A stretch of DNA of 64,000 nt from Candidatus Bipolaricaulota bacterium. GTDB taxonomy: Bacteria > Bipolaricaulota > Bipolaricaulia > RBG-16-55-9. The position numbers and the translations under genes are program-made. The notes under the pieces were generated by a model. That model had not been told where the DNA came from and did no database searches. It worked only from the letters and a program-made list of their open reading frames with translations. Where the stretch lies: positions 30 to 64,029 of the forward strand of contig JALSGO010000083.1 of assembly GCA_026982655.1 (NCBI GenBank), given 5' to 3'. Shown piece after piece: positions 32,479 to 52,616 of the stretch (positions are counted from its first letter, which is position 1; every line of letters starts with the position of its first letter).

Positions 32479-32502
32479 TTCCCACCCCACCGGGGGTGGG
32501 AA
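32479..32502 (+). promoter_or_regulatory. Perfect palindrome TTCCCACCCC-accg-GGGGTGGGAA (CsoR-type operator candidate, site A) at about +1..+25 of the promoter
   Basis: 10-bp perfect inverted arms, 4-bp spacer; same motif found at three other promoters; csoR is in the downstream operon. Confidence 0.6.
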
Positions 32503-32530
32503 GAGCCCGAGGAAAGGGGAGGGATCTCTC

Positions 32531-33181
32531 GTGAAAGCGCGGAAGAAACGGCCCGAGGAGGAGCGGTGGGAACTCTCGCCGGAGGCGCGTCGACTGAGCC
32601 GGCGGAAGTTCCTGGCTCGCTTGGGCCTGGGCTCGCTGGTCCTCACGGCGGGAGGAGCGGTCAGCAGCATCGGCGCCTACATCCTGCCGAAGGTGAACTT
32701 TGAGCCCTCTCAAGCGTTTACCGCCGGGCGACCGGAGGACTACAACGTCGGGGACGTGCGGCTGATCGAATCCCAGGCCGTGTTCATCTTCCGCACGCCC
32801 TATGGCTTTCAGGCCGTCTCGGACATCTGCACCCACCTGGGGTGCGCCTATCAGCCGTACGGCCCGCCGGACGACGAGTACCCCCAGGTCCATGCCCATT
32901 GCCCCTGTCACGGGTCGGTCTTCGCGCGGGACGGGCGGGTGTTGCGGGCTCCCGCTCCTCGGCCCGTGCCCTTCTACTACATGACGATCAACCCATCGGG
33001 CTTGCTGGTGGTGGACAAGGGGGTCTACGATCCCACGGACGAGCTGAGCCGCCAGAGCGGCGAGGGGGTAGGGCACAACCTCTATCTCGACCCCGAGACG
33101 GGGCAGATGGTAGAGGGTCCGCTGCCCACCGGCGAGGACCTCCGGTTCGGAGCGATCCGAACCGAGCCCTCTCGAGGCTGA
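32531..33181 (+). CDS. Rieske [2Fe-2S] protein with Tat signal
   Basis: SRRKFLARLGLG twin-arginine; CTHLGC ... CPCHGS Rieske boxes; GTG start. Confidence 0.8.
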   Translation: MKARKKRPEEERWELSPEARRLSRRKFLARLGLGSLVLTAGGAVSSIGAYILPKVNFEPSQAFTAGRPEDYNVGDVRLIESQAVFIFRTPYGFQAVSDICTHLGCAYQPYGPPDDEYPQVHAHCPCHGSVFARDGRVLRAPAPRPVPFYYMTINPSGLLVVDKGVYDPTDELSRQSGEGVGHNLYLDPETGQMVEGPLPTGEDLRFGAIRTEPSRG

Positions 33182-33268
33182 AGCCCGCGGGTGCGGAACG
33201 GGCGTGGAATAGAGAGAACAAAGAAGGAAGGCAAAGAAAGAATCTCCCAACGATGGAGGTGCTGTTCG

Positions 33269-35923: not shown

Positions 35924-36238
35924 ATGACCGAAGAACTACTGGTGTTGTTACAGCAGGGGAGCCTGGCGGCCCACCCGGAGGCGAAGCGCCACGCCCAGCG
36001 GCTCGTCCGCACCGTCATCGGCCACACCCAGGGCATCGAGCGGATGATCGAGGAAGAGCGATACTGCATCGACATCTTAAAGCAGATCGCCGCGGTGCAG
36101 GGGCTGCTGACCAAGCTGGCCCACACCGTAAGCGAAGCCCACATGAAACACTGCGTGCGACTGGCCATCGAGGAGGGCCACGGCGAGGAGGCCGTTGAAG
36201 AACTGATGGAGACGCTGAAATACCTGCGGAGCGTATAG
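35924..36238 (+). CDS. csoR: CsoR-family copper-sensing transcriptional repressor
   Basis: Strong similarity to M. tuberculosis CsoR across the core (GHTQGIERMIEEERYCIDILKQIAAVQGLL...HMKHCV), with the Cys/His/Cys Cu(I) ligand pattern conserved; GAGAGGAGAGG RBS. Confidence 0.85.
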   Translation: MTEELLVLLQQGSLAAHPEAKRHAQRLVRTVIGHTQGIERMIEEERYCIDILKQIAAVQGLLTKLAHTVSEAHMKHCVRLAIEEGHGEEAVEELMETLKYLRSV

Positions 36239-36245
36239 TTCCCCC

Positions 36246-38663
36246 ATGGGGTGGCTGGACGGCCTGCTGCGCCATCGTGGGCTCGTGCTGGGGGCGGCTT
36301 TGCTGCTCACCGTTCCGGCGCTCCTGTCTCTCAGTCGATTGGAGTCCCAGGACACCTACGATGCTTGGTTCCCCCCGGACGACCCGGCGTATCGCTTCTA
36401 TCGGGAGTTCCAGCGGCGGTTTGAGAACGACATGTTCATCGTGGTGGCCTATCGAGACGAGACCCTCTTCACCCGGGAGGGGCTGGCGTTCCTCGCGGAG
36501 CTCACCGCCCGTCTTGCGGAGCTCCCCTACGTGCGGGAGGTGACCAGCCTCACGAACGTCGAGCACGTCCGGGGGGAAGAGCAGGCGCTCATCGTCGAAC
36601 CCCTCGTCCCCGATCCGGAGCGCCTCGATCCCGACGTCGTCCGGCAACGGGCCCTCTCGCGCCCCCTCTACCGCGGGCTGCTGATCTCCGAGGACGGGAC
36701 GACGACCGCGGTCGTCGCCGAACTCGACCGGATCGCCTCCATGGACGAGGAGGCCGCTCTGGTGGGGGCCCTCAAGGACCTCCTGCGCACGCTGGAGGTC
36801 CGAACGGGCAAGTCCTTCTACATCGGGGGCTATCCCGTCCTCGACGTCGAGATCATGCAGGCTTCCGAGCGGGATATCCGGACGTTCATCCCCTTGACCG
36901 TCGGGGCCATCTTCCTCGTATTGTGGGGGGTCTTCCGCCGACCGTCGCTGGCCGCCCTGGCGTTCGTGTCCGTCTCGCTGGCGCTGGCTTGGACCTTCGG
37001 GCTGTACGCCGGCCTGGGTCTTAAGTACAGCATGATGCTGAGCATCCTGCCCACGATCATCCTCGCCATCGGGATTGCGGATGCGGTACACATCTTGGTC
37101 CACTACTACGAGGAGCTCGCCCGGGGGCGGCCGCAGCGGGAGGCCCTCCGTCAGACCCTACGAAAGATGCTCCGCCCCTGTCTGTTCACGACGCTGACGA
37201 CCGGAGCCGGGTTCATCTCGTTCTTGAGCAGCGATATCCCCGTGGTGCGGCTGACGGGGCTCTTTGCCGCGGTGGGCATCGGGCTTGCGTTCGTGCTCAC
37301 GGTGCTCGTGCTGCCCGCAGCCGTCTCGTTTTTCCGCCCGCCGCACGGGACGGCCCGGCGACGGTCTCAGGGCACGTTCGCTCGGGCCTTGGAGGGGCTG
37401 ACCCGAACGACCCTGGCCCACCCGCGCGCCGTGCTCCTGGGGGCCGGGATCGTGCTCGTCTTCGGCCTGTACGGGATCTCCCGCTTGGAAGCCGAGACGC
37501 TGGGCCTGGAGTGGCTGCGCGACGACCACCCCCTCCAGCAGAGCTATCGCTTCATCGAGGAGAACCTCACCGGGCTGTACAACCTCGAGCTCATCGTCGA
37601 GGGCGAACGGGACGCGCTCCGCTCCCCCGAGATGCTCCGCCGGATCGAGGAACTCAGTGCGTTTGCGCTCCAACAGCCGGGCGTGCGCAAGGCGATCTCC
37701 GTGGTCGACTACGTCAAAGAGATCCACCGGGCGCTCCGCGGGGGAGATCCCCGGTACTACACGATCCCGGACACGGCCCGCGACGTCGCGCAGGCGTTGT
37801 TGCTCTACGAGTTCTCCGGGGGACGCGAGCTGCGCGAGATCGTAAGCGGCGACTACAGCGCCGGACGACTCACCCTGCTGCTGGATGCCCTCTCCAGCCG
37901 GGAGTACACCGAGCTCAACCGACGCATCCTCGAGCGCGCCGAGACGTTGGACTTCCCTCGGCCCGTGCAGGCAACCGGTGCAGTGGTCCTGGTCGAGGCG
38001 ATGCTCAAGAAGCTCACCCTCAGCCAGGTCCGGAGCTTGGGGTTGGCTTTGGCCCTGATCACCTTGCTTATGATCGCCCTGTTGCGCTCCTGGAAGTTGG
38101 GGCTGCTCAGCTTGATCCCCAACGGGCTGCCGATCCTGCTGATGTTTGCGACCATGGGCCTGCTCTCCATCCCCCTGGACGCGGCGACGTCCACGGTCGC
38201 GGGGATGGCTTTAGGGATCGCCGTGGACGACACGATCCACTTCTTGACCCGCTTCCGACGCGAACTGAACGTGACGGGCGACTATCGCCGGGCGCTCACG
38301 CAGACGGCCCGGACGGTCGGCCAGGCGATCGTGTTCACGTCCGTGATCCTGCTGGCCGGCTTCAGCGTGCTGTTGCTGGGCAGCTTCAAGGGAACGGTGT
38401 ATATGGGGTTGCTCGTCGGGCTCACGATGCTCTTCGCGCTCGTAGGGGATTTGGTGCTCCTACCCGCGCTGCTCTGGGTCCTCAAGCCCCTCCCTGTGTC
38501 CGCAGCTGCTTCGACCCCGGCTCCGGCTCCGATGGCGGACGATGGCCGATCAGCTTCCGACCAGAGGAGGTTGAGGGAGGTCATGGACGACGCCCCCCGG
38601 GTGCAGGGTACGCTTATGCGTGGCCGGGACGAGGAAACAGGAGCCCGCGAAGCCGGCAGGTGA
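36246..38663 (+). CDS. RND-superfamily / MMPL-type exporter (HAE3/HpnN-like), paralog 1
   Basis: 805 aa, two 6-TM bundles with periplasmic loops; N-terminal LSRLESQDTYDAWFPPDDPAY...VREVTSLTNV pattern shared by the three paralogs. Confidence 0.8.
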   Translation: MGWLDGLLRHRGLVLGAALLLTVPALLSLSRLESQDTYDAWFPPDDPAYRFYREFQRRFENDMFIVVAYRDETLFTREGLAFLAELTARLAELPYVREVTSLTNVEHVRGEEQALIVEPLVPDPERLDPDVVRQRALSRPLYRGLLISEDGTTTAVVAELDRIASMDEEAALVGALKDLLRTLEVRTGKSFYIGGYPVLDVEIMQASERDIRTFIPLTVGAIFLVLWGVFRRPSLAALAFVSVSLALAWTFGLYAGLGLKYSMMLSILPTIILAIGIADAVHILVHYYEELARGRPQREALRQTLRKMLRPCLFTTLTTGAGFISFLSSDIPVVRLTGLFAAVGIGLAFVLTVLVLPAAVSFFRPPHGTARRRSQGTFARALEGLTRTTLAHPRAVLLGAGIVLVFGLYGISRLEAETLGLEWLRDDHPLQQSYRFIEENLTGLYNLELIVEGERDALRSPEMLRRIEELSAFALQQPGVRKAISVVDYVKEIHRALRGGDPRYYTIPDTARDVAQALLLYEFSGGRELREIVSGDYSAGRLTLLLDALSSREYTELNRRILERAETLDFPRPVQATGAVVLVEAMLKKLTLSQVRSLGLALALITLLMIALLRSWKLGLLSLIPNGLPILLMFATMGLLSIPLDAATSTVAGMALGIAVDDTIHFLTRFRRELNVTGDYRRALTQTARTVGQAIVFTSVILLAGFSVLLLGSFKGTVYMGLLVGLTMLFALVGDLVLLPALLWVLKPLPVSAAASTPAPAPMADDGRSASDQRRLREVMDDAPRVQGTLMRGRDEETGAREAGR

Positions 38664-38722: not shown

Positions 38723-39373
38723 ATGAACCCGCAGGAACGATGGAACGATGCTCTGACGCCGGAGAAGGAACCGACCGAGGGAGCTCTCTCGACGCCGCCC
38801 CCGGACGGCGCGTCCGAGGGGACCGGAGAGGGGCGGTCCCCTAAGGGGCGAACCGTGGGGATCGCCCTGATCCTCGCCGTGGTCGTGGGGATCGGCATCG
38901 GGTACTCGCTGTATTCCTTGCGGGCCGAGAGGGTGTCCGGGCTGGCGTCCACGGGGAGGGAGGTAGACCGGGGCCTCGGCGGCGGCATGCCGGCGATCGT
39001 GGTGGCCCCGCTGCTTAGGGATCTCGGGGAGGTGAGCGTCCAAGGGGGGACGGTGACCACCTTCTTCACCGTGCGCAATCCCGGGGACGGGGTGCTGGTC
39101 ATCACCGACATGGAGACTTCCTGTATGTGCACGGAGGTCGCTTTGATCGTGGACGGCGTGGAAGGCCCTCGACTCGGGATGCGCGGCCACGGTCCGCGGC
39201 CCGAGTGGTCGGCCCGGCTGAACCCGGGCGAGGAGGCGACCCTTAAGGTCTACTACGACCCCACGGTACACGAGGAGCTACGCGGACCGGTCACCCGCGT
39301 GGTGCGGGTTCACACGAACGTCCCCACCCGTCCCTACGTGGACATCTTGATCGATCTGGTGCAAACGGACTGA
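38723..39373 (+). CDS. DUF1573-domain secreted/anchored protein (variant motif SCMCT)
   Basis: N-terminal TM; VSVQGGTVTTFFTVRNPGDGVLVITDMETSCMCTEV...LNPGEEATLKVYYDP fits the DUF1573 consensus (F.F.N.G..PL.I..V..SCGCT ... PG....I.V.F). Confidence 0.55.
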   Translation: MNPQERWNDALTPEKEPTEGALSTPPPDGASEGTGEGRSPKGRTVGIALILAVVVGIGIGYSLYSLRAERVSGLASTGREVDRGLGGGMPAIVVAPLLRDLGEVSVQGGTVTTFFTVRNPGDGVLVITDMETSCMCTEVALIVDGVEGPRLGMRGHGPRPEWSARLNPGEEATLKVYYDPTVHEELRGPVTRVVRVHTNVPTRPYVDILIDLVQTD

Positions 39374-39424: not shown

Positions 39425-40000
39425 GTGATGAACGGGGAATCGAGGGACAAGGACCAAGGTCAGAATACGGAGATGCACGCGATCCGCCGCCGGGCGGCCT
39501 TCTTGAGCCGAGGCGGAGTGAGCCTGCCCCTCCTGATCATCGGGGTCCTCCTGGCCCTGGGGACGACTGCGGGCCTGGGGTATTTGCGTCTGGCGGGCCC
39601 ACCGGCGGCAGGCCCTCCGCGCATCGAGGTCACGCCGGAGCTCATCGAGTTCGGAGAGATCTCCCCCACCGAGAAGGCGGTCGTGGAGTACCGTGTGCGA
39701 AACGCCGGGGGAAGCCCGTTGGAGATCACCCGCGTGAGCACCTCGTGTGGGTGCACCACCGCCGAGGTCGGCAAGACGACGCTCCTCCCCGGCGAGACGA
39801 CTCCGTTGCGCGTCACCTTCGACCCCCAAGCGATGCGGGCCGAAGGGCTCAACGAGGAGGACATCTACCGGATCATCTTCCTAAGGAGCAACGACCCCGA
39901 GCGGCCGGAGGTTACCGTCGAGCTTCGCGGTCGCGTCCTGCCGTCGGACTCGGACTCGAACTCGAACTCGGAGCCGGAGTCTGCCGTCGAGGGGAGGTAA
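39425..40000 (+). CDS. DUF1573-domain protein (canonical SCGCTT motif) with a C-terminal Ser/Asp-rich tail
   Basis: EFGEISPTEKAVVEYRVRNAGGSPLEITRVSTSCGCTTAEV...LLPGETTPLRVTFDP. Confidence 0.65.
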   Translation: MMNGESRDKDQGQNTEMHAIRRRAAFLSRGGVSLPLLIIGVLLALGTTAGLGYLRLAGPPAAGPPRIEVTPELIEFGEISPTEKAVVEYRVRNAGGSPLEITRVSTSCGCTTAEVGKTTLLPGETTPLRVTFDPQAMRAEGLNEEDIYRIIFLRSNDPERPEVTVELRGRVLPSDSDSNSNSEPESAVEGR

Positions 40001-40098
40001 CCGAAGCGCTCGGTTGGGGCCGGGCACGGGGGACGGCCCCCTAATCCCACCCCAGGAGGGAAGGGAAAGGGGAAGCTTCCTGAAGGAAGAAGAAGCCC

Positions 40099-42771
40099 AT
40101 GGCCAAGGTCAAAGACCCCGTCTGCGGGATGGAGATCGACGAGGAAGAGGCCGTCGCCTCCCACGTCTACGAGGGGCAGACGTACTCCTTCTGCTCCAAG
40201 GACTGCGAGAAGGAGTTCGTCGAGAAGCCCGAGTTTTATGTCAAGCCGGAGCCCGCCCGCTCGGCGACCACGGGCGTGGACGTCGAGAGCACGGAGCCGG
40301 TGCACGCCGAGCTCCCCCTGGCGGGCTTGGACTGCACCAGCTGCGTGGTGACCGTCGAGCGCACCCTGCGGGAGGTCCCCGGCGTGGAGAGGGCCCACGT
40401 CAACTTCTCGCTGGGGATCGCGCACGTCACCTACGATCCCAAGGAGGCGAGCGTCGAGGACGCCGTCCAGGCGCTCAAGAAGGCGGGCTACGACGTGGGG
40501 GCCGCCGAGATGCGGGTGCGCATCGAGGGGCTTCGCTGCGCCTCCTGTGTGGGCTTCATCGAGGAGGCCCTGCGGAAGGTCCCCGGCGTCTTGGAGGCCA
40601 CGGTGAGCCCCGGAACGGAGACGGCGGTCATCCGCTACGTCCCCGGGATGGTGAGTTTTCCGGCGATCAAGGAAGCGATCGAATCTACGGGCTACAAAAC
40701 GGTCCACCGCCTGGAGGAGGAGGAGCCGCCCGATCAGGAGGCCGCCGCCCGCGAGCGGGAGTACCGCCTGCTCATGCGCCGCTTCCTCTTCGCCGCCGTC
40801 GTCTCCGTCCCGGTGCTCCTTACGGCCTATCCCGAGTTCGTGCCCTTCTTGAGGGATCTTCCCCGGAGCACGATCCGGCTCATCTGGGCCTTCGACGCGC
40901 TGCTGACGCTGCCCGTGTTGTTGTGGTCGGGTCAGCGCTTCTTCACGGGCGCTTGGGCGGCGTTCAAGCACCACAGCGCGGACATGAACACGCTGATCGC
41001 GCTGGGCACCGGCGCGGCGTGGGCCTATTCGACGGTCGCGATCGCCTTCCCTCAAGTGTTCCCCGAGGGGACGGCGGAGCCCTTCTTCGACGTGGCCGCC
41101 GTGGTCATCGCCTTGGTCGTGTTGGGCCAAGCGCTCGAGGTCCGGGCCAAGGGGCGCACCAGCGCGGCGATCAAAAAGCTTCTCGACTTACAAGCCAAGA
41201 CGGCCCGCGTGGTGCGCGACGGGCAGGAGATGGACATCCCCGTGGAAGAGGTGCTCGTGGGCGACGTGGTGGTGGTCCGCCCCGGCGAGAAGGTGCCTGT
41301 AGACGGCGTGGTGATCGAGGGCTCCTCCGCGGTGGACGAGTCGATGATCACCGGGGAGCCGATCCCCGTGGAAAAAAATCCCGGGGATGAGGTGATCGGC
41401 GGGACGATCAACAAGACGGGGTCCTTCAAGTTCCGGGCGACCAAGGTGGGCAAGGAGACGGCGCTGGCGCAGATCGTCCAGCTCGTACAACAAGCCCAAA
41501 GCACCAAGCCCCCGATCGCCCGGCTGGTGGATGTGGTGAGCGGCTACTTCGTGCCCGCGGTGATGATCATCGCGGTGCTGGCGTTCTTGGTATGGTTTAA
41601 TTTCGGGCCGGAGCCGCGGCTGACCTTCGCCCTGGTGACCGCGGTGACCACGCTGATCATCGCCTGCCCCTGCGCGCTGGGGCTGGCCACCCCCATGAGC
41701 ATCATGGTCGGGGTGGGCAAGGCCGCCGAACACGGGATTCTCATTCGCAACGGCGAGGCCCTCCAAAAGGCCTCGAAGCTGGACACGATCGTGCTCGACA
41801 AGACGGGCACGGTCACCAAGGGGAAGCCCGAGCTGACCGACGTGATCGCCGCTGAGGGCTTTACAGAAGACGAGGTGCTCCGCCTGGCGGCCAGCGCGGA
41901 GCGGGCCAGCGAACACCCCTTGGCCGAGGCGATCGTCCAGGGCGCCCAGGCGCGCGGACTGGAGCTTGCGGACCCCGAGACGTTCAACGCCGTCCCCGGC
42001 CACGGGATCGAAGCCACGCTCGACGGCAAGAGAGTGCTCCTGGGCAACGTAAAACTCATGAAGCGCGAGGGCATCGACGTCGGCGGCCTCCGCGAGGCGG
42101 CGGAGCGCCTCTCCGACGAGGGCAAGACCCCGATGTACATGGCCGTCGACGGCCAAGCCGCGGGGCTGATCGCCGTGGCCGACACGATCAAGGAAGACTC
42201 CGTCGCGGCCATTCGGACGCTCCAGGAGCTGGGGCTGGAGGTCGTCATGCTCACCGGGGACAACCGCCGCACCGCCGAGGCGATCGCCCGCCAGGTCCAC
42301 ATCGACCGGGTCCTGGCCGAAGTGCTCCCGGAGCAGAAGGCGGCAGAGGTGAAGAAGCTGCAGCTCGAGGGCCGCAGGGTCGGCATGGTCGGCGACGGGA
42401 TCAACGACGCGCCCGCCCTGGCCCAGGCCGACGTGGGCTTCGCCATCGGGACGGGGACGGACGTGGCCATTGAAGCTGCGGACATCACGCTCGTGGGCGG
42501 AAGCCTCCGCGGGGTGGTCACCGCCATCGAGATCTCCAAGGCCACCATGCGCAACATCAAGCAAAATCTCGTGGGAGCCTTCATCTACAACACGCTGGGC
42601 ATCCCGGTGGCCGCGGGGGTCTTCTATCCCCTCACGGGGATGCTGCTGAGCCCCCTCATCGCGGGGGCGGCGATGGCGTTTAGCAGCGTGACCGTGGTGA
42701 CGAACGCCAACCGCCTGCGGCGGTTCCGGCCCCGGATCGTCTCCGACTTCGAGGAAGGAGGTACGACATGA
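40099..42771 (+). CDS. copA: Copper-translocating P1B-type ATPase with N-terminal YHS/TRASH domain plus two HMA-like domains (second CopA paralog)
   Basis: [11 protein letters not shown]...[12 protein letters not shown] (YHS); GLDCTSCV and GLRCASCV; CPC; DKTGT; YN...MAFSS. Confidence 0.85.
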
Positions 42772-43190: not shown

Positions 43191-44582
43191 ATGGGCGTAG
43201 ACTTGACGTTCCTCGGCGCCGCCGGGACGGTCACGGGCTCCAAGTATTGGCTCTCGGCGGGCGGCAAAAACTATCTCATCGACTGCGGGCTCTTCCAGGG
43301 ACCGGACGAGCTGGAGCAGCTCAACTGGGAACAGCTTCCCATCGCCCCCGCGGAGCTGGACGCCGTGGTGCTGACCCACGGGCACCTCGACCACTCGGGG
43401 TACCTCCCGCGGCTTGCGAAGAGGGGCTACTCCGGGCCGGTCTACGCCTCGGAGGCCACCTGCGCGCTGCTCGAGCTGCTTTTGCCCGACTCGGGATACC
43501 TGCAGGAGGAGCACGCGGGCTACGCCAACCGCAAGGGCTACTCCCGCCACAAGCCCGCGCTTCCGCTGTACACCTACGACCAAGCGCTCGAGTCCCTAAA
43601 GCTCTTACGGCCCGTGAAGCTCGCGGAGCCCTTCGCCGTAGACAAACACCTCACGGTCACGATGCGCCCGGCGGGCCACATCCTGGGCTCCGCGATCGTA
43701 GAGTGCGAGCTTGATAATAAAAAGATCGTCTTCTCCGGGGACCTGGGCCGCTACGATCAGGAAGTGATGAAATCCCCAGCGACGGTGACGCGGGCCGACT
43801 ATCTGCTGGTCGAGTCGACGTACGGCGATCGGGAGCACGGCGAGGACCCCATCGAAGATCAGCTGGCCCCCGTGGTGAACGCCGCTGTCGAGCGCGGCGG
43901 GGCGCTTCTCATCCCGAGCTTCGCCGTGGGCCGCACCCAGCACGTCCTCTACTACCTGCGAAAGCTCCAAGACCAAAAGCGCATCCCCGAGGTGCCCATC
44001 TACGTGGACAGCCCGATGGCCATCGACGCGACGGCGATCTACTGCCGCTTCGGAGATGAGCTCAACCTCAACGTCAACCTGCTGATGGACGACGAAGCCT
44101 GCCCGCTGCGCTGCCGCGACACGCGCTTTACGCGGACGGTCCCCGAGTCGAAGCGGCTCAACGACGCGCCGGGGCCTCTTGTGATCCTCTCCGCGAGCGG
44201 GATGTGCACCGGCGGTCGGATCCTCCACCACCTGAAGCACCGCCTGCCCGACCCCAAGAACACCGTGCTCTTCGTGGGCTACCAGGCCCAAGGCACCCGG
44301 GGCCGCAGGCTCCTCGAGGGAGCCGACGAGATCAGAATTCACGGGATGACCGTCCCGGTGCGGGCGGAGATCGCCCAGATCGACGGCCTCTCCGCCCACG
44401 GAGACGCCCGGGAGCTGATGCGCTGGCTCTCCGGGTTCGAGCGGCCTCCCGAACAGACGTTCCTCGTCCACGGGGAGCCGCACGCCTCCCAAGCGCTGGA
44501 GGAGCGCATTCGGAAGGAGCTGGGCTGGGCGACCCACCGGCCCCGCTACGGCGAGACCGTCTCCTTGGAGGGCAGGGGATGA
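43191..44582 (+). CDS. MBL-fold metallo-hydrolase with beta-CASP domain (RNA-metabolising, RNase J/CPSF-like)
   Basis: VLTHGHLDHSGYLP (HxHxDH), beta-CASP motifs, 463 aa. Confidence 0.8.
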   Translation: MGVDLTFLGAAGTVTGSKYWLSAGGKNYLIDCGLFQGPDELEQLNWEQLPIAPAELDAVVLTHGHLDHSGYLPRLAKRGYSGPVYASEATCALLELLLPDSGYLQEEHAGYANRKGYSRHKPALPLYTYDQALESLKLLRPVKLAEPFAVDKHLTVTMRPAGHILGSAIVECELDNKKIVFSGDLGRYDQEVMKSPATVTRADYLLVESTYGDREHGEDPIEDQLAPVVNAAVERGGALLIPSFAVGRTQHVLYYLRKLQDQKRIPEVPIYVDSPMAIDATAIYCRFGDELNLNVNLLMDDEACPLRCRDTRFTRTVPESKRLNDAPGPLVILSASGMCTGGRILHHLKHRLPDPKNTVLFVGYQAQGTRGRRLLEGADEIRIHGMTVPVRAEIAQIDGLSAHGDARELMRWLSGFERPPEQTFLVHGEPHASQALEERIRKELGWATHRPRYGETVSLEGRG

Positions 44583-45304
44583 TCCGCTACGCGCTCTTCG
44601 ACTTGGACGACACGCTCTATCCCCCGGCGGCGGGGCTCATGGAGGCCCTCAGCCGCCGCTTTACGCAGTGCATCGCCGAGGAGCTGGGCATCTCCCTCGA
44701 ACAAGCCGAGGCCCTGCGGCGCGAGTACGGCAAGCGCTACGGCTCGACCACGCGGGGGCTCGCCCTGCATCACCACGTGGACATCGGGGGATTTTTGGCC
44801 AAGGTCCACGACCTGCCCATCGAGGAGTATCTGCAGCCCGACCCCGAGCTGGGGTGTTTGTTGGACTGCATCGACGCGCAGAGGTGCATCTTCACCAACG
44901 CGCCGGAGGCCTACGCCCGGCGGGTGTTAGACGTCCTGGGCGTCGCGGATCGCTTCTGTCGGGTCTTCGCGGTCGAGTTCTCGGGTTATAGGGGCAAGCC
45001 CGACCCCCTCGTCTACGAGCGGGTGGTCGCCGAGCTGGGCGCTTCCGACCCGGAGATCGTGATGCTCGACGACGTGCGGGCCAACCTCCTCCCCGCCGCG
45101 CAGAGGGGCTGGACGACCGTCTGGGTCAACGGGCGGGGGAAGCCCGCCGACCCTCAAGACCTCGACGGGATCTCCTATGCGGTGGGCGACCTCTGGGAGG
45201 TGGCCCGCGTCTTCCGCGAGATCGGGCTCCTCGACGAGGCCCACCACGAGGAGTGGAACCGCTGCCTCCTCCGGTGCCCGCTGGGCCGGAGACGGGCTGG
45301 GTGA
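44579..45304 (+). CDS. HAD-superfamily hydrolase (pyrimidine 5'-nucleotidase-like)
   Basis: ALFDLDDTLY (motif I DxDxT), ...FTNAP..., ...MLDDVRANL...; ATGA overlap with the upstream gene. Confidence 0.75.
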   Translation: MIRYALFDLDDTLYPPAAGLMEALSRRFTQCIAEELGISLEQAEALRREYGKRYGSTTRGLALHHHVDIGGFLAKVHDLPIEEYLQPDPELGCLLDCIDAQRCIFTNAPEAYARRVLDVLGVADRFCRVFAVEFSGYRGKPDPLVYERVVAELGASDPEIVMLDDVRANLLPAAQRGWTTVWVNGRGKPADPQDLDGISYAVGDLWEVARVFREIGLLDEAHHEEWNRCLLRCPLGRRRAG

Positions 45305-45344
45305 CCTTGCTGGACGTCTTCCGGGGGGAACATGACGCAGATCA

Positions 45345-45374
45345 TTGATCCCACCCCACGGGGGGTGGGATAAT
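45345..45374 (+). promoter_or_regulatory. Promoter TTGATC - 18 nt - GATAAT whose spacer is the perfect palindrome ATCCCACCCC-acgg-GGGGTGGGAT (CsoR-type operator candidate, site B; palindrome 45348..45371)
   Basis: Read from sequence; the operator occupies the -35/-10 spacer, a classic repressor position; 35 nt upstream of the cytochrome b start. Confidence 0.65.
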
Positions 45375-46495: not shown

Positions 46496-47077
46496 ATGCG
46501 ACCACAGAGCAGTTGGGTTCACGTCGGTTGGATCACAGCGTTGCTGACGGTGGCGGTGGGGATCGGGCTTGCGGTGGGGCTTCCGGGACGGGCCCACGAG
46601 GGCGCGGAGGTGAGCGCCTATCCTACCACCGTGGCCCCGGGGGAGACGCTCTTCGTGGAGGGCGCGGACATCAACCCTAACGGCCCGATCGCCCTCTTCT
46701 TGGAGGGCGTAAAGGGCAAGTTCCGCCTGGGTCAGGTCCGGGGGGACGAGGACGGCGGGTTCAAGACGAGCGTGGCCCTCCCGCCGGATCTCCCGCCGGG
46801 GACCTATTTGTTGGTGGCCGTCGGGGCCAACGGGGAGAAGGCCACCTTCTCGGTGACGGTGGCCGCCGCGGTAAGCTCCCTCACCCAAGAGCCCAGGGAG
46901 CCCACGGACGCGCTCATGGAGCTGGACCGGTCAAGGTCCTCCGAGGAGTGGGCGTTCCTCGCCGTCGTGATCGGGCTGAGCCTGCTCCTGGGGGCGTGGC
47001 TGGCCCGCCCGGAACGGATGGTTGCACCTGCCTCTCCTTCTGCCTCCGCCGCCGAGCCCGACGGGAGCGGGCCTTGA
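46496..47077 (+). CDS. Hypothetical bitopic membrane protein (N- and C-terminal TM helices, central beta-rich domain) co-transcribed with cytochrome b
   Basis: ORF begins 5 nt after the cytochrome b stop; no heme (CxxCH) or copper motif. Confidence 0.4.
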   Translation: MRPQSSWVHVGWITALLTVAVGIGLAVGLPGRAHEGAEVSAYPTTVAPGETLFVEGADINPNGPIALFLEGVKGKFRLGQVRGDEDGGFKTSVALPPDLPPGTYLLVAVGANGEKATFSVTVAAAVSSLTQEPREPTDALMELDRSRSSEEWAFLAVVIGLSLLLGAWLARPERMVAPASPSASAAEPDGSGP

Positions 47078-47103: not shown

Positions 47104-48309
47104 ATGAGCCGACGGGGGTACGAAGGAGTTTCGGTCGTGGGGGCCGGACCGGCGGGGCTTGTGGCGGCCCTCACGCTGGCCCGCGCAGGCGTCCCCGTCA
47201 CCGTCTACGAGAAGGGGCCGACGGTGGGCACCCGCTTCCACGGCGACTTTCAAGGCTTAGAGAACTGGTCCCGCGAGCTCGACGTCTTGGAGGATCTCCG
47301 GACGATGGGGCTTGCGATCAACTTCGCCGTGCAACCGCGCGACTCAGCGGACTTCTACGACGCCTGGGACCGGAAGTACGACATCAGGACCCGAGAGCCC
47401 CTCTTCTATCTGGTGCGCCGCGGGGGTGGGGAGGGGAGCCTCGACCGCGGGCTCTACGCCCAGGCCCGGGAGGCCGGGGTGCGGTTCCGTTTCCACACCA
47501 AGCTCGATCGGGTGGAGGGCCCGGCGATCGTGGCCACCGGCCCGCGCTACGCCGACGGCATCTGCGTGGGCTACCTCTTCGAGACGGACCTAGAAGACCT
47601 TACGGCCTGCATCCTCTCCCAGCGCCTGGCCCCCCGCGGCTACAGCTACCTCCTGGTGGCCGACGGTCGGGCGACGCTGGTGAGCTGCCACTTCGCCGAC
47701 CTCCCCCGCTGGCGGGATCATCTGGAGGCCACCGTCGAGGCCTTCCGAAAGCTTTACCGCTTTGAGATGCGGAACCCCCGCTTCTTCTCCGGCTACGGGA
47801 ACCTCTTCGCCCGGGGGCGCTTCCGCGACGGCCAAAAACTCTACGTGGGCGAGGCCGCCGGGCTCCAGGACGGCCTGTGGGGCTTCGGGATGCGCTTTGC
47901 CCTGCGCTCGGGATATCTGGCGGCCCAGAGCCTGCTCTCCGGCCAAGACTACGACGAGCTGGTCCGAAGGGAGCTTCTGCCGCACCACCGGGCGGGGCTG
48001 GTCAACCGCTTTTTCTGGAACCTCTTGAGCGATCGCATGTTGGCGTTCTTCCTGCGGCGGGCGGCGCGCTGGACCGACCTTCGGGGGCGGCTGCGCGAGC
48101 TCGCCGGGCCCCGTCCCTGGAAGGATCGGCTCTATCCCTTCATCCGGGGAGCCTGCGGCTGGCGGGCCCGCTACCGCGACGAGCGCTGCCTCCGGGAGGG
48201 GTGTCCCTGCATCGGGTGCGCGTGTCGGAGTCCTTCGCGTACGATCTCGAGCCCCTGCGTCTCTTGGGGAGCGGCTCGGTTCCGACTCGACATGACGCAA
48301 GTCATTTGA
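47104..48309 (+). CDS. FAD-dependent oxidoreductase (geranylgeranyl-reductase-like family) with a Cys-rich C-terminus
   Basis: VSVVGAGPAGLVAALTLARAG dinucleotide-binding motif; ...GEAAGLQDG...; C-terminal CPCIGCACRS; GAGGAAGGAG RBS. Confidence 0.7.
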   Translation: MSRRGYEGVSVVGAGPAGLVAALTLARAGVPVTVYEKGPTVGTRFHGDFQGLENWSRELDVLEDLRTMGLAINFAVQPRDSADFYDAWDRKYDIRTREPLFYLVRRGGGEGSLDRGLYAQAREAGVRFRFHTKLDRVEGPAIVATGPRYADGICVGYLFETDLEDLTACILSQRLAPRGYSYLLVADGRATLVSCHFADLPRWRDHLEATVEAFRKLYRFEMRNPRFFSGYGNLFARGRFRDGQKLYVGEAAGLQDGLWGFGMRFALRSGYLAAQSLLSGQDYDELVRRELLPHHRAGLVNRFFWNLLSDRMLAFFLRRAARWTDLRGRLRELAGPRPWKDRLYPFIRGACGWRARYRDERCLREGCPCIGCACRSPSRTISSPCVSWGAARFRLDMTQVI

Positions 48310-48334
48310 CCCACCCCCTCTGGGGTGGAATAAT
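48306..48334 (+). promoter_or_regulatory. Promoter TTGACC - 17 nt - AATAAT containing the near-palindrome GACCCACCCC-ctct-GGGGTGGAAT (CsoR-type operator candidate, site C)
   Basis: Core arms match 7/8; the -35 overlaps the stop codon of the upstream oxidoreductase gene. Confidence 0.5.
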
Positions 48335-48342
48335 AGAGTGAA

Positions 48343-48669
48343 ATGTCTGCAGAAGCGCGGCGCGGGATCGACAGCAGGTTCCGGGATCTCCTGTCCCTGT
48401 TGCTCATCGGGGTGTTGATCCTGCCGATGGCCGGCCCCTCCGGCCCCTTCACGGAGTCAGGGGCGTGTTCGGGGAACCCGCTTGAGGCGGGATGCGCTGC
48501 GATTCTGCATGTCGCCCGAGGCACGGCCGGTCATTGCCTGCCTTGTGGTGCCGTTGTCCTCCTGAGCTCTCCTCTGCCCTTTGCCTGGGCACTCGTAGGG
48601 GATTGGACTTCCGCCGGACTTGGCAGCCCGTTGGATCCGTCCTTTGTGCCCTGGCGTCCCCCTGCCTGA
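48343..48669 (+). CDS. Putative small Cys-rich membrane protein (uncertain; GC3 drops in the 3' half)
   Basis: First ORF after the site-C operator; hydrophobic N-terminus; five Cys (CSGNPLEAGC...HCLPCG). Confidence 0.25.
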   Translation: MSAEARRGIDSRFRDLLSLLLIGVLILPMAGPSGPFTESGACSGNPLEAGCAAILHVARGTAGHCLPCGAVVLLSSPLPFAWALVGDWTSAGLGSPLDPSFVPWRPPA

Positions 48670-48784: not shown

Positions 48785-49270
48785 GTGCCAATGCCTAAGA
48801 AGACGAACAAGGATCGGAAGGTCAAGCAGCAGCGTCTACTCCGGCAGGGGGCGGCCGGGGGCTGGCGGCCCTGGGCCTTTGGGGCCGTCACCCTCGGGGT
48901 GCTAACAGCCGCGTTTGGGCTGCTCTTGCCGAAGTTCTTCGCCGACGGTCCCGCAGCGGACGGGGAGGCCAACGTCATCCTGGTCGAAGCGGACATGGCC
49001 GGGCTCTATCCCAAGGAGATCCGGGTCAAGGCCGGGGAGCCCGTGACCATCCGCCTGCGCAGCTTGGACAACCGGTTCCACCTGGACGGGGGAGGCAAGC
49101 ACCAGTTCGCCATCGACGAGCTGGGGGTCAACATCATCGCTCCGCCGCTCGGCACGGCCGAGGCCACCTTCATCCCTACGGAACCGGGTGAATACGAGTT
49201 CTACTGCGACATCTGCTGCGGCGGGCGGGCCAACCCGACCATGGTAGGGAGGCTGATCGTCGAGCTATGA
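48785..49270 (+). CDS. Membrane-anchored cupredoxin_1-like copper-binding protein (paralog 2)
   Basis: ...HLDGGGKHQFAIDELGV...EYEFYCDICCGGRANPTMVGRLIV, same architecture as the protein at 42768. Confidence 0.6.
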   Translation: MPMPKKTNKDRKVKQQRLLRQGAAGGWRPWAFGAVTLGVLTAAFGLLLPKFFADGPAADGEANVILVEADMAGLYPKEIRVKAGEPVTIRLRSLDNRFHLDGGGKHQFAIDELGVNIIAPPLGTAEATFIPTEPGEYEFYCDICCGGRANPTMVGRLIVEL

Positions 49271-50109
49271 GCGCTCTGACCCAGATCTCCGCGCGCAAGG
49301 TGGTGCTGGCCTCGGCGATCGCCCTGGGGGTGATCGCCGCCGCGGTCTTCTTGGGGCTGCGGCACCCCTCCGCCCAGGCCGTCCCGATGAGCCCGCTCCT
49401 CCCGGCGGTGACGCTGGGGACCATCGTGGTGGCCGGGATCGTCGACGGGATCAACCCCTGTGCCTTCACGGTGCTCCTACTGTTCGTTACTGCCCTGCTC
49501 GCGAGCCTGCAAACCCGCAGCGACGTCGGGATCGCCGAGAACGTGGGGGCCACGCGCGCCCGGATCGTGGGGCTCGGCTCCATCTACATCGCAGCCATCT
49601 TCCTCACCTACCTGGCGCTGGGGGCGGGGCTCTTGGTGACGGCAGATCTCTTCGTGCGGGAGCACCTGCCCGCCCGGATCGGGGCGCTGCTCGCCATCTT
49701 CCTCGGGCTGTGGATGCTCAAGGACTACTTCCTGCCCGGGTGGGGCTGGCGGCTGGGGGCCCCCAAGGTCGTGGGGGAGTGGGCCCGGCGCGCGGCCCGG
49801 AAGATGACCGTCCCGGCGCTGGCGCTCGGGGGCTTTCTCATCGGGCTCTGCACCGTGCCCTGCAGCGGGGCGGTCTACCTGGCGGTGCTGGCGCTCCTCT
49901 CGACCCAGCCGACCGCGACGGCCTTCGGGTACCTGGTGCTCTACAACCTGATGTTCATCCTCCCGTTGGTCGGGGTGCTGGCCGTGGCCGCGTCGCGCCC
50001 GGCGCTGAACCGCTTGGCCCGCTGGAACCTCCACCACCGGGAGGGGGTCCGGCTGGCCTTGGGGTCGGGTGTCGTGCTCATGGGGCTGTTCATCCTGTAC
50101 ACCGTCTAG
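49267..50109 (+). CDS. CcdA/DsbD-family transmembrane thiol-disulfide protein (cytochrome c-type biogenesis CcdA-like)
   Basis: ATGA overlap with the upstream gene; DGINPCAFTVLLLFV (TM1 Cys) and LCTVPCSGAVYL (TM4 Cys), six TM. Confidence 0.6.
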   Translation: MSALTQISARKVVLASAIALGVIAAAVFLGLRHPSAQAVPMSPLLPAVTLGTIVVAGIVDGINPCAFTVLLLFVTALLASLQTRSDVGIAENVGATRARIVGLGSIYIAAIFLTYLALGAGLLVTADLFVREHLPARIGALLAIFLGLWMLKDYFLPGWGWRLGAPKVVGEWARRAARKMTVPALALGGFLIGLCTVPCSGAVYLAVLALLSTQPTATAFGYLVLYNLMFILPLVGVLAVAASRPALNRLARWNLHHREGVRLALGSGVVLMGLFILYTV

Positions 50110-50159
50110 CTGGGAAACGGAGAACGGATCGAGAACCCAGGAGAAAGGAGGAAGCGGCG

Positions 50160-50480
50160 GTGAACAACCATCATGCGGGAGGCGGCAAGCCCTGCCACGT
50201 CGAGCGGCTGGAGAAAGAGGTGGACATGGAGGCGCTGCGCTCCACCCGGGTCAGCATCCTGGCGGTGACGGGGATGGGGTGTCCCAACTGTGCCCTGCGG
50301 GTGCACAACGCGCTCCTCGCCCTCCCCGGCGTCCATCGGGTGGACGTGGAGCTGGAGGCCGAGCGGGCGATCGTCTACTGGGACCCGACCGCCCTGCAGC
50401 CGGAGAGGCTGATCGAGGCGGTCTCCCAGGCTGCGGCGGGGACCCCTCACGACTACCGGGCGTACTTCGTGAAGCCGTAG
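50160..50480 (+). CDS. copZ: Heavy-metal-associated (HMA) domain copper chaperone, CopZ-like, with a His-rich N-terminal tail
   Basis: GTG start after AGGAGAAAGGAGG; NNHHAGGGKPCH tail; VTGMGCPNCALRV (MxCxxC). Confidence 0.7.
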   Translation: MNNHHAGGGKPCHVERLEKEVDMEALRSTRVSILAVTGMGCPNCALRVHNALLALPGVHRVDVELEAERAIVYWDPTALQPERLIEAVSQAAAGTPHDYRAYFVKP

Positions 50481-50503
50481 CGGAGCCACAGACGCAGAGC
50501 GGG

Positions 50504-50590
50504 GCTGCCCGGGGCCCGAGTCACCGTCGTCGCATCGGCTTCCACCTCCGCCCCGGGCAGCTCCCCGCCCTGCCCGCCGACGGCAGGGAG
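50504..50590 (+). other. Two GC-rich hairpins (12-bp perfect inverted repeat GCTGCCCGGGGC ... GCCCCGGGCAGC, then CCCTGCC-N7-GGCAGGG) after the copZ-like gene
   Basis: Read from sequence; approximate coordinates. Confidence 0.4.
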
Positions 50591-50642
50591 CTCCCACACA
50601 CGGGGAGAGAAGGAGAAAGGGAAGACACAAGGAGGGATTTCC

Positions 50643-51173
50643 ATGGACCTTAGGCTCATCGCCGTTGCGATCGTCTCCTTGGCGCTGGGGTTCCTCTTGG
50701 CCTCCGGCCTGCGCCCGGAGGTCGGGGTGGGGCCTTCGGAGGCGGAGCGGATCTTGGAGCGGCTGCGGCGCGAGATCATCCCGGAGGAGGGCAGCCCCAC
50801 GGGCTACGGGATCGCCTTCAGCGAGGCGGGCTACCAGACCCTGGTGGCCAAGAACCGCACACTCAGCGTCCCGCCCGAGCGGGCGGACGACTTCGAGGGC
50901 CTGGACATGAGCCTGCCCTGCTGTCCCTTCCAGAGCCCGAGCGTCGACGAGGCGAAGAACTGCCCGTGCGAGCACCATCAGGCGCTCTACGGGCTGGCCA
51001 AGTGGCTCCTCCAAGAAGACTATCCCGCAGACCGGGTCCAGGAGGAGGTGGCGCGCTGGAGCCGCTACCTCTTCCCCAAGGAGGCGCTGCGGGCGGAGAT
51101 GGAGCGGCGGGCGAAGCTCGATCCCGCCGTCGAAGCCGCCCTGGAGGAGCTCAAGGCCAAGGGGAAGTGCTAG
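50643..51173 (+). CDS. Membrane-anchored protein with Cys/His metal-binding-like motifs (LPCCPF, NCPCEHH, C-terminal Cys)
   Basis: N-terminal TM; motifs reminiscent of the CopG/DUF411 or PCYCGC families, but assignment is uncertain. Confidence 0.4.
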   Translation: MDLRLIAVAIVSLALGFLLASGLRPEVGVGPSEAERILERLRREIIPEEGSPTGYGIAFSEAGYQTLVAKNRTLSVPPERADDFEGLDMSLPCCPFQSPSVDEAKNCPCEHHQALYGLAKWLLQEDYPADRVQEEVARWSRYLFPKEALRAEMERRAKLDPAVEAALEELKAKGKC

Positions 51174-51227
51174 GCCGATTGGAACAGGGACGACCCGACG
51201 AGATCGAGGACGAGGAGGCGAGCGACG

Positions 51228-52541
51228 ATGATGGCATCCACAGCCGAACCGGCGGAAACGGAACCCCGACGGGGCGGGGGCCTGGGGAAGAGCCTTCGGG
51301 AGCGCTGGGCGCTCTGGACCCTGGGGCTGTTCGCCCTGCTGATCGTAGGGCTCTTCTTCTTCTACCGCCCGCCCATGGAGGAGAGCATCACGGGGGACAC
51401 CTTCCACCCCATCCGCGGGCTGATCGGCTTCCCCCACGGCCCGGGGGCCGCCGCGGAACCCTACGACGAGGAGGCCCTCGACCGCTTCGTGGAGGAGACG
51501 ATCGCGGAGACCTACGCCAAGGCGCGCATCGATCAGATCAAGCTCCTCCTCATGGGGCTCCTCATCGGCTTGATCCCGCTGGGCTATTACCGCGGTCGGT
51601 CGGACCGCCTAAAGCGCCTGGGACAGCGGGTCAACAAGATCTGGGACCCCTACACCTTCGGCACCGTCTCGGGGCTCCTTTTGGTGGGGGTGATCATCCC
51701 TACGGGGACGGTCCTCGGCCTCTTCTACAGCGCCGACGCGGAGAAGCTCTACGAGAGCATGGCGGGCATCGTGGGGAACCCCATCCTGAGTTTCCTGCGC
51801 AACCTCCACCTCTGGGCCTCGGAGGCGTTCTTGCTCTTCCTGTTCCTGCACACGGCCCGGATCGTCTCCACGCGGGCCTACTTTGCGGGACGCAAGCTCG
51901 TCTGGGTTCTGGGTGTCGTGCTGCTTGTGATCAGCTGGGCGACCTTCCTGATCGGCACCTTCATCCGGGGGGACCAGGAAGCGTTTGAGGCCTGGGTCCA
52001 CATGATGGCCCTCATCCGCTTCATCCCCCTCGTCGGGGACCCGATCGCCGACTTCTTCTCCGGCCCCTTCGCCGTCATGCGGCTGTACGTCTTCCACATC
52101 GTGATCACCACCATCGCCTTGCTGCTGATTCTGGCACCCCACGTGCTGATGCAGAAGGTGTACGTCCACGTGCAGCGGCGCTGGAGGGCGGCCCTTCGCT
52201 ACACCCTGGGGCTTACGGCCCTGATCGCGGTCCTCAGCCTGCTGGTGCCCGCCCCCTTCCTGGCGGAGCCCTACCACGACCTGGAGATCACCAAGCCACC
52301 GTGGCCCTATTACTTCCTGTACGCCTGGGAGAACATCGGCGGCGCGGTGAGCATGATCTGGTCGCCGCTGCTCATCCTGGTGCCGCTGCTTCTGCTGCCG
52401 TACGCGCTGGAGCAGCTGCCACTCGCCCGCCGGACCGCCCAACGGGTGGGCGACTGGGTCTTCTACGGCGGGGTCCTGATCACCTTAGGGCTGAGCTACT
52501 GGGTGGCCGCCTCGGGAATTGTGGCCCACGTCTTCGAATGA
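51228..52541 (+). CDS. Cytochrome b-like protein (bc-complex cytochrome b N-terminal domain), paralog 2 with an N-terminal extension
   Basis: RNLHLWASEAFLLFLFLHTARIVSTRAYFAGRK heme-ligand pattern; polytopic. Confidence 0.7.
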   Translation: MMASTAEPAETEPRRGGGLGKSLRERWALWTLGLFALLIVGLFFFYRPPMEESITGDTFHPIRGLIGFPHGPGAAAEPYDEEALDRFVEETIAETYAKARIDQIKLLLMGLLIGLIPLGYYRGRSDRLKRLGQRVNKIWDPYTFGTVSGLLLVGVIIPTGTVLGLFYSADAEKLYESMAGIVGNPILSFLRNLHLWASEAFLLFLFLHTARIVSTRAYFAGRKLVWVLGVVLLVISWATFLIGTFIRGDQEAFEAWVHMMALIRFIPLVGDPIADFFSGPFAVMRLYVFHIVITTIALLLILAPHVLMQKVYVHVQRRWRAALRYTLGLTALIAVLSLLVPAPFLAEPYHDLEITKPPWPYYFLYAWENIGGAVSMIWSPLLILVPLLLLPYALEQLPLARRTAQRVGDWVFYGGVLITLGLSYWVAASGIVAHVFE

Positions 52542-52590
52542 GGAGGGCCGGACTTGACAACCCTCCCCGGATGGGGTACAGTGAGACCAT

Positions 52591-52616
52591 ATCCCACCCC
52601 AGGTGGGGTGGATAAG
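52591..52616 (+). promoter_or_regulatory. Near-palindrome ATCCCACCCC-aggt-GGGGTGGAT overlapping a GATAAG -10-like hexamer (CsoR-type operator candidate, site D)
   Basis: Right arm lacks one G relative to a perfect repeat; immediately upstream of the RND paralog 2 start. Confidence 0.5.

Follow-up and report, generated by a model that had tools for sequence, protein, structure and literature searches.

Four palindromic boxes on predicted promoters of a Bipolaricaulota genome are probable operators of its copper repressor CsoR

The window analysed here, a stretch of 64,000 nucleotides (nt) from Candidatus Bipolaricaulota bacterium (assembly GCA_026982655.1, contig JALSGO010000083.1), contains four near-identical GC-rich palindromes on predicted sigma-70 promoters, together with a gene for the copper-sensing repressor CsoR. 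From their sequence, their identity to characterised operators and their conservation in related genomes, the palindromes are very probably operators of the CsoR encoded at positions 35924-36238, as an earlier sequence-only reading of the window had proposed. The predicted operator and sensor are of the textbook kind; it is the apparent size and content of the regulon that is unusual.

Results

Four boxes on four predicted promoters

We determined motif counts and positions within the 64-kb window, which is the scope of all in-window frequencies given below. A search of the whole window for CCCACCCC-N4-GGGGTGGG with up to three mismatches returns seven matches, four of them with zero or one mismatch. 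The perfect matches start at 32481 (A) and 45350 (B) and the one-mismatch matches at 48310 (C) and 52593 (D), each of the latter two carrying GGGGTGGA. The putative operators and their predicted promoters are listed in the order of the sequence, followed by a degenerate fifth site.

32440-32468, + strand: promoter A, TTGACA-17-TATCGT (consensus scan, 10/12 matches)
32479-32502, no strand: operator A, TTCCCACCCC-accg-GGGGTGGGAA, perfect 10+10 inverted repeat with a 4-nt spacer
45345-45374, + strand: promoter B, TTGATC-18-GATAAT, its spacer filled by operator B
45348-45371, no strand: operator B, perfect 10+10 inverted repeat with a 4-nt spacer
48306-48334, + strand: promoter C, TTGACC-17-AATAAT, its spacer filled by operator C
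48308-48331, no strand: operator C, core 7/8 + 8/8, one mismatch in the 8+8 core (GGGGTGGA)
52554-52582, + strand: promoter D, TTGACA-17-TACAGT (consensus scan)
52591-52614 (extended), no strand: operator D, ATCCCACCCC-aggt-GGGGTGGATA, N4 spacer, one core mismatch
40046-40065, no strand: site E, CCCACCCCaggaGGGAAGGG, i.e. CCCACCCC-agga-GGGAAGGG, two mismatches, degenerate, 34 nt upstream of the copA2 ATG

All four sites read CCCACCCC-N4-GGGGTGG(G/A), with runs of at least four G or C in each arm and a fixed N4 spacer, as CsoR operators do. Motif search and inspection of the sequence bear out the four copies at the positions first reported, including the perfect 10+10 repeats at A and B and the 7/8 core at C. 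A one-base indel had been proposed at site D; we reject it because the N4 register fits with a single mismatch, the core at 52593-52612 being CCCACCCC-aggt-GGGGTGGA, an ordinary N4 site.

Exactly four copies of the 7+7 core CCACCCC-N4-GGGGTGG are present in the window, every one of them intergenic (4/4, in line with the non-coding placement claimed earlier), and the same core is absent with any other spacer of 0 to 12 nt. Its 7-mer half-sites are present 25 and 24 times on the + strand, and the 8-mer half-sites 12 times per strand. Half-site arithmetic gives about 0.009 expected paired 7+7 cores vs four observed (Poisson P ~3e-10). Allowing up to two mismatches, the box finds no match in 172 kb of unrelated high-GC (>=60%) metagenomic DNA, a control sequence originally obtained for another purpose. 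Copies A to D lie 3-13 kb apart, and an alignment of their flanks shares promoter elements only. Two matches with three mismatches, at 3040 and 6887, are taken as chance, since about two such are expected per window; the one at 6887 falls inside a peptidase gene. Site E is possibly a weak internal or vestigial operator.

Of the 11 sigma-70-like sites that a consensus scan for promoters places in the window, just four fall between 32000 and 64000, and these are the ones at A, B, C and D. Two designs emerge from these in silico predictions: boxes B and C lie within the spacer between -35 and -10, and boxes A and D lie about 10 nt past the -10, over the predicted start. By this prediction of promoters and starts, each copy occupies a repressor-type position, as had been suggested. 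The hexamers named earlier for A and B (-35 and -10) and for C (-10) stand; GATAAG, put forward as the -10 at site D, is replaced by TTGACA-17-TACAGT further upstream.

A CsoR of the Cu(I)-sensing type is encoded in the window

The open reading frame (ORF) at 35924-36238 (104 residues) matches PF02583 with an E value of 6e-24 and is the sole CsoR-family ORF in the window. Its best matches in the PDB are the CsoR proteins of T. thermophilus (3AAI, the best), Geobacillus (4M1P) and M. tuberculosis (2HH7), with E values of about 1e-18. An ungapped alignment to 2HH7 equates Y47, C48, H73, C77 and E93 with M. tuberculosis Y35, C36, H61, C65 and E81. In the M. tuberculosis protein, Cys36, His61 and Cys65 are the Cu(I) ligands, with Tyr35 and Glu81 as their partners (PMC10601412). 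The window protein therefore combines the PF02583 fold, the Cys-His-Cys set and the Tyr/Glu pair of a Cu(I)-sensing CsoR, and its designation as a bona fide csoR holds. The NCBIfam RicR model scores it at 63.4 bits against a 175-bit cutoff, which does not assign it to RicR.

The gene is linked to a Cu(I)-exporting P1B-type ATPase: csoR follows copA1 in the transcription unit behind operator A (unit A), and this copA1-csoR arrangement is identical in the related loci L003, L004, L006, L007 and L008. Because csoR sits inside unit A, behind operator A, it would be autoregulated. Pfam scans of the window ORFs judged coding reveal no other metal-sensing regulator; besides CsoR they recognise only HrcA and a sigma-70 factor as transcription proteins. 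Homologues with a named source, both for CsoR and for the transporter MMPL2 (unit D, below), come from metagenome-assembled genomes (MAGs) of Candidatus Bipolaricaulota/Bipolaricaulia, and an identical CsoR protein is present on metagenome contigs.

A second CsoR paralogue, 74% identical and with the same Cys-His-Cys motif, is encoded at 10001-10312 of L220, which shares a 147.8-kb contig with L006. It closes a ccm cytochrome c maturation operon and adjoins ArsR-rhodanese, DsrE and MMPL-LolA-like genes that are syntenic with window positions 58180-63890.

The box core is that of characterised CsoR operators

The published M. tuberculosis CsoR duplex is 5'-GTAGCCCACCCCCAGTGGGGTGGGATAC (PMC10601412), and the T. 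thermophilus CsoR site is CCCCACCCCACCTGGGGTGGGG (PMC10318464). The window sites share with both the identical 8-N4-8 core CCCACCCC-N4-GGGGTGGG; the M. tuberculosis operator core, as given in the sequence-only reading, is correct against the published duplex. Sites of the CsoR family are described as pseudo-palindromes with runs of at least four G or C, and for the paralogue TTHA1953 a spacer change of +/-1 nt lowers affinity 10-15-fold in dissociation constant (PMC10318464). In M. tuberculosis, two CsoR tetramers are reported to bind each operator (PMC10601412).

The resemblance to the M. tuberculosis cso system (the Rv0967 operon, csoR-Rv0968-ctpV-Rv0970) extends from the operator core and the shared Cys-His-Cys and Tyr/Glu residues to promoter architecture, with the operator overlapping -35 and -10 as at window promoters B and C, and to an autoregulated csoR co-transcribed with a Cu(I) P-type ATPase. 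M. tuberculosis CsoR reportedly has one characterised operator serving a four-gene operon, whereas the window holds four or five candidate operators in two promoter geometries ahead of about 22 genes, with csoR third, behind a Rieske gene. The proteins themselves show family-level similarity only (an 82-residue aligned stretch, 68 bits, E 6e-18). T. thermophilus HB8 CsoR (TTHA1719, copZ-csoR-copA) provides the best PDB match and has the same core and N4, but it controls a single three-gene operon for which no respiratory-type or RND genes are reported.

Regulons of several operons are known elsewhere in the family. M. tuberculosis RicR and Streptomyces lividans CsoR each act as one repressor on several dispersed promoters that share a palindrome and include that of the repressor's own gene, and the window resembles them in having a predicted multi-operon copper regulon under one CsoR-family repressor. 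Their boxes are of the TACCC...GGGTA type rather than CCCACCCC-N4-GGGGTGGG, and their targets are metallothionein, multicopper oxidase or copZA genes rather than Rieske/cytochrome b or HAE3-LolA genes. T. thermophilus TTHA1953, a CsoR-family regulator acting on sulfur oxidation genes, shows that the family uses 8-N4-8 palindromes and can control respiratory or redox pathways; its box, however, is TACNNTACNNNNGTANNGTA, its signal is thiol oxidation instead of Cu(I), and the G/C-rich CsoR box is not among the sequences it binds (PMC10318464).

Conservation of the box at orthologous promoters

At least eight related metagenomic lineages keep the box at promoters orthologous to those of the window. 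Around CsoR homologues of 58-86% identity it has zero to two mismatches and follows a TTGAC(A)-17-TAnnnT promoter at a distance of a few nt. These site A-type boxes precede Rieske-copA-csoR, copA-csoR or csoR, and the N4 and all flanks vary by locus; boxes ahead of orthologous Rieske/copA-csoR operons are found in L003, L004, L006, L007, L008 and L014. The closest relative of the window's first cytochrome b (cyt b1) with enough flanking sequence, L137 (81% identity, 60% GC), has two boxes. One is of B type, inside TTGATC...TATAAT, ahead of DOMON-cyt b1-orf193-orf108-cupredoxin-CcdA-like genes, and the other is of A/D type, ahead of CopZ-like-orf176...cyt b2. An MMPL2 orthologue of 91% identity (L219) has its box behind TTGACA-17-TAAGCT. 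In another of 85% identity (L216), the box at 3483-3503 has a 3-nt spacer, CCCACCCC-cct-GGGGTGGG, the one true case of this spacer length, and may be a naturally weakened operator or a homopolymer assembly error.

The Bipolaricaulia MAG GCA_046758705.1 (L048 and L217; 57-60% GC) carries at least five boxes. They precede genes for DsbD-like and thioredoxin-like proteins, a Rieske gene, a sigma-fragment-PEMT-beta-CASP-HAD-MMPL cluster, a DOMON-cyt b...Pyr_redox cluster and orf96-copA-Rieske-YHS. The beta-CASP/HAD pair of the window recurs in L217 under a CsoR box, ahead of an MMPL gene. Gene order shuffles by lineage (L006, for example, has the FAD oxidoreductase after csoR and orf108 after MMPL1), yet a CsoR box still precedes these genes, an argument that the regulon is functional.

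Comparison of 18 sites, from the window and from 10 related loci, reveals just three single-base differences at core positions 2-7 of the two arms. The outermost arm position varies, mostly without compensation, as do the flanks, the N4 and the promoter spacers; spacers lean towards A-N-N-T, ATAA is the preferred 3' flank, and the resulting consensus is tnaN-CCCACCCC-ANNT-GGGGTGGG-ATAA. Conservation of the palindrome in related genomes had been suggested as a check on the earlier reading, and here the arms are nearly invariant at orthologous promoters amid diverging surroundings. Arms fixed in sequence around a free spacer fit recognition of DNA by a protein, not an RNA stem. More distant cyt b1 relatives (<=58% identity, L138-L215), used as a background control, have no box.

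Two of the box-led arrangements of GCA_046758705.1 can be placed more exactly. At 4422-5065 of L217, a perfect CsoR box precedes a gene for a 195-residue protein with sigma-70 regions 3 and 4 only; copper might thus control a truncated sigma factor or an anti-sigma-like one. At 433-1188 of L048, a DsbD_TM protein and a thioredoxin-like protein are encoded behind a CsoR box. CcdA/DsbD-like genes in such a setting recall, by analogy, Scs-type thiol-disulfide copper-tolerance systems.

Genes of the four predicted units

Gene calls rest on analysis of GC content at third codon positions (GC3), Pfam and NCBIfam, and the + strand is the coding strand for all genes from 30.5 to 63.9 kb. The four units would comprise about 22 same-strand genes at 32.5-57.8 kb, over about 25 kb. 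We delimit them in this way because same-strand gaps are short and there are no other predicted promoters and no credible terminators.

Unit A
32531-33181, + strand: Rieske [2Fe-2S] protein, first gene, twin-arginine-like leader; same place in L003, L004 and L006
33191-35848, + strand: CopA1, P1B-type Cu(I) ATPase with two HMA CxxC domains, CPC and DKTGT; start perhaps further downstream
35924-36238, + strand: csoR (Pfam Trns_repr_metal), third gene of the operon
36246-38663, + strand: MMPL1, HAE3-type RND transporter (Pfam/NCBIfam)
38723-39373 and 39428-40000, + strand: two DUF1573 membrane-anchored Ig-like proteins (Pfam)
40099-42771, + strand: CopA2, Cu(I) ATPase with an extra N-terminal YHS domain; CPC, DKTGT, CxxC
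42768-43142, + strand: Cup1, membrane-anchored cupredoxin-like protein
43191-44582, + strand: beta-CASP metallo-beta-lactamase RNase-like protein
about 44579-45304, + strand: HAD hydrolase

Unit B
probable start 45406, end 46491, + strand: cytochrome b6-like cyt b1
46496-47077, + strand: orf193
about 47080 (start uncertain) to 48309, + strand: FAD-dependent oxidoreductase

Unit C
from 48343, + strand: orf108, Cys-rich small membrane protein, nearly leaderless
48785-49270, + strand: Cup2, CuA-like cupredoxin
49267-50109, + strand: orf280, CcdA/DsbD-like membrane protein with NPC and PC motifs in transmembrane helices
50160-50480, + strand: CopZ-like HMA protein; GTG start, ribosome-binding site aaggagga, GMGCPNC motif
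50643-51173, + strand: Cys-rich orf176
51228-52541, + strand: cyt b2, second cytochrome b

Unit D
probable start 52628, end 55573, + strand: MMPL2, HAE3-type RND transporter
55625-56407, + strand: LolA-like protein
56461-57798, + strand: cyclopropane-fatty-acyl-phospholipid synthase-like methyltransferase

The downstream genes given by the sequence-only reading (copA-csoR, cytochrome b, cupredoxin/CopZ-like and an RND exporter) are essentially right, except that the first gene behind site A encodes the Rieske protein. The CopZ-like protein is 73% identical to the L137 protein encoded at 6039-6425. Its gene had escaped longest-ORF picking because the spurious orf194 (50069-50653, 194 residues), which we reject as a GC-frame artefact, overlaps it. 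An ATG at 45373 was likewise rejected as the start of cyt b1, as it lies inside the -10; the ATG at 45406, with a GGAGGG ribosome-binding site, agrees with the orthologues. The ATG of orf108 is only 8 nt past the AATAAT -10 of promoter C (48329-48345), and the unit C transcript would therefore have little or no leader.

The remaining sequence is of an ordinary chromosomal kind, with hrcA-dnaK-dnaJ, an rpoD-like sigma factor and peptidases. Positions 58180-63890 encode a third HAE3/MMPL protein, a LolA-like protein, a beta-propeller-rhodanese protein and a UbiE-type methyltransferase. This block is separated from unit D by a 380-nt gap without a CsoR box, and its L220 counterpart adjoins the CsoR paralogue.

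A second palindrome at promoters B and C

A second palindrome, ATGAY-N4-RTCAT, adjoins the -35 of every B/C-type promoter, with its centre about 42 nt upstream of the predicted start.

45332-45345, no strand: ATGAC-gcag-ATCAT, ATGACgcagATCAT, abutting the -35 of promoter B
48292-48305, no strand: ATGAC-gcaa-GTCAT, ATGACgcaaGTCAT, abutting the -35 of promoter C
L137 1428-1441: ATGATttagATCAT
L217 10575-10588 (= L218 3680-3693): ATGACtaagGTCAT

The copies at 45332 and 48292 are the only exact ones in the window. At 19005-19018 of L006, the motif lies without a CsoR box on promoter-like sequence ahead of an orf108-like gene, and it is for this reason that we treat it as a separate module. Its TGAY-N4-RTCA core has what we take to be the geometry of CRP/FNR-family boxes, and by analogy this suggests class II co-activation of the redox units B and C by a CRP/FNR-like factor. 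The window encodes no CRP/FNR-type regulator, so co-activation stays a lead.

Discussion

Proposed mechanism

By analogy with characterised CsoR proteins, apo-CsoR would bind each (T/A)TCCCACCCC-N4-GGGGTGGGA(T/A) box at low copper, and Cu(I) bound to Cys48, His73' and Cys77' would release it, so that all units would be de-repressed together. At B and C, box-bound CsoR would exclude RNA polymerase, since the box fills the spacer between -35 and -10 as in the M. tuberculosis cso promoter. At A and D, where the box lies over the predicted start about 10 nt downstream of the -10, bound CsoR would instead block open-complex formation or promoter escape.

Alternative explanations

Several observations count against assigning the boxes to CsoR. 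Site E is degenerate and lacks a recognisable promoter, and the extents of the operons are themselves predictions from the sequence. No box is present in the 130 nt available upstream of the close cyt b1 orthologue in L136, and none lies near the CsoR homologues of L010 and L012 (61-66% identity) or near the L220 paralogue, so presence of the box does not strictly follow the CsoR clade. An exact-pattern scan of species-representative genomes gave at least 120 matching loci, and among the 120 matches listed, the sample to which the following figures refer, about 105 are not beside csoR and fall into GC-rich-genome background and CRISPR-like arrays (CRISPR, clustered regularly interspaced short palindromic repeats). 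By itself, then, the 20-mer is not diagnostic, whereas its occurrence on a promoter next to csoR-copA is. Among the matches listed, csoR lies within a few hundred bp in 14, and 13 of these also have copA in the 8-kb block. These csoR-linked matches span Chloroflexota, Actinomycetota, Acidobacteriota, Thermus and an alphaproteobacterium, at least five other phyla, and include Ardenticatenaceae, Anaerolineales, Nitriliruptoria, Acidimicrobiia, Haloechinothrix, Acidobacteria, Devosiaceae, a Thermotogae-labelled MAG and Thermus composti; the Thermus genome among them (L088) has csoR beside the box. The CRISPR-like arrays occur in Clostridia MAGs and are unrelated to csoR. One (L081) holds 29 copies of the 20-mer at a period of about 69 bp, and another (L126) has copies at 1562 and 1630 with the repeat tail ...GGATTGAAAT; many single matches fall in 'Lapin' Clostridia MAGs.

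The homologues without a box would suit operators of a different regulator encoded outside the window, with the linkage to csoR a coincidence, but this is very unlikely: two CsoR operators defined by experiment have the identical core, csoR adjoins the box in at least 14 unrelated genomes and lies within the box A-controlled unit in every orthologous locus, and the Pfam scans of window ORFs judged coding show no rival metal sensor. We consider it highly improbable that the palindromes work as RNA hairpins in transcripts, whether attenuators, stabilisers or terminators. Transcripts from A and D would include the box, which can fold into a hairpin of 8-10 G-C base pairs, and these hairpins have folding z scores of -1.25 and -1.40 vs shuffles, not unusually stable. 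At B and C, however, the box lies between -35 and -10 and would go untranscribed from that promoter; terminator scans flag none of the sites, no T-tract follows any copy, an Rfam scan of the whole window gives zero family matches, and the arms are fixed, not co-varying. Half-site 8-mers are common, and the 20-mer does occur in arrays of some Clostridia MAGs, which could hint at a chance GC-rich word or a dispersed repeat such as a repetitive extragenic palindromic (REP) element, a miniature inverted-repeat transposable element (MITE) or a CRISPR-like repeat. The sequence evidence effectively refutes this reading and leaves it almost no probability. Pairing is about 400-fold above expectation and confined to N4, the widely spaced copies share no flanking repeat of the CRISPR or REP kind but promoter elements only and differ in appearance from the true arrays of L081 and L126, and their position is kept ahead of orthologous genes in genomes of 57-68% GC.

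A further alternative keeps the same CsoR boxes and changes their purpose. Their main role may be to act as a switch for copper sufficiency and not for detoxification, Cu(I) turning on a cupredoxin-dependent Rieske/cytochrome b branch (with DOMON in relatives) together with a copper-loading ATPase and chaperone, or, in a variant, a chain that oxidises exported Cu(I). We hold this to be rather unlikely. In its favour, the products of units B and C and of the gene that opens unit A are redox proteins, not exporters (the Rieske protein, two cytochromes b, the FAD oxidoreductase, the CuA-like cupredoxin and the CcdA-like protein); L137 and L217 have the same classes under CsoR boxes, joined there by DOMON; CopA2 has a YHS domain, and its gene is translationally coupled to that of a cupredoxin; and promoters B and C carry the extra CRP/FNR-like box. 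Against it, two CPC-type exporters, a CopZ-like protein and thiol-disulfide proteins suit plain copper stress equally, the units lack a terminal oxidase or reductase, and in the full-text literature we find nothing that links CsoR to Rieske or cytochrome b and nothing on copper regulation in Bipolaricaulota.

A predicted regulon of unusual content

Characterised CsoR proteins, to our knowledge, control one to three small operons of the copA, copZ, csoR type, and we know of no classical CsoR regulon that includes Rieske, cytochrome b, cupredoxin, CcdA-like or HAE3/LolA-like genes. Much of the window's regulon content recurs behind CsoR boxes in other Bipolaricaulia. With the palindromes taken as CsoR operators, we tentatively raise the idea that CsoR of Bipolaricaulia controls, beyond copper export, a conserved extracytoplasmic electron-transfer module and envelope-lipid functions. 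The module would consist of the Tat-type (twin-arginine translocation) Rieske protein, the two b6-like cytochromes b, DOMON proteins (in relatives), the CuA-like cupredoxins, the FAD oxidoreductase and CcdA/thioredoxin-like proteins, and the envelope-lipid part of the HAE3 RND, LolA-like and cyclopropane synthase proteins. Such a module might form a copper-dependent respiratory branch that copper sufficiency turns on, or else a chain linked to quinones that detoxifies copper by Cu(I)/Cu(II) redox chemistry in place of a multicopper oxidase, two roles that even together we consider rather unlikely. Envelope repair is a third candidate role of the non-classical genes.

Should the regulon consist of efflux plus bystander genes only, the result is ordinary annotation. 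If it does include the electron-transfer and envelope-lipid functions, a CRP/FNR-like factor would share in the control of two of its promoters through ATGAY-N4-RTCAT at about -42. For a phylum with almost no cultured members, the window offers a testable regulatory map of one repressor, an operator consensus and four or five promoters in two designs. The same type of operator appears common to CsoR across at least six phyla and would be usable to annotate copper regulons in metagenomes. The recurrent placement of the non-classical genes behind CsoR boxes points to an uncharacterised link of copper with membrane redox chemistry or the cell envelope.

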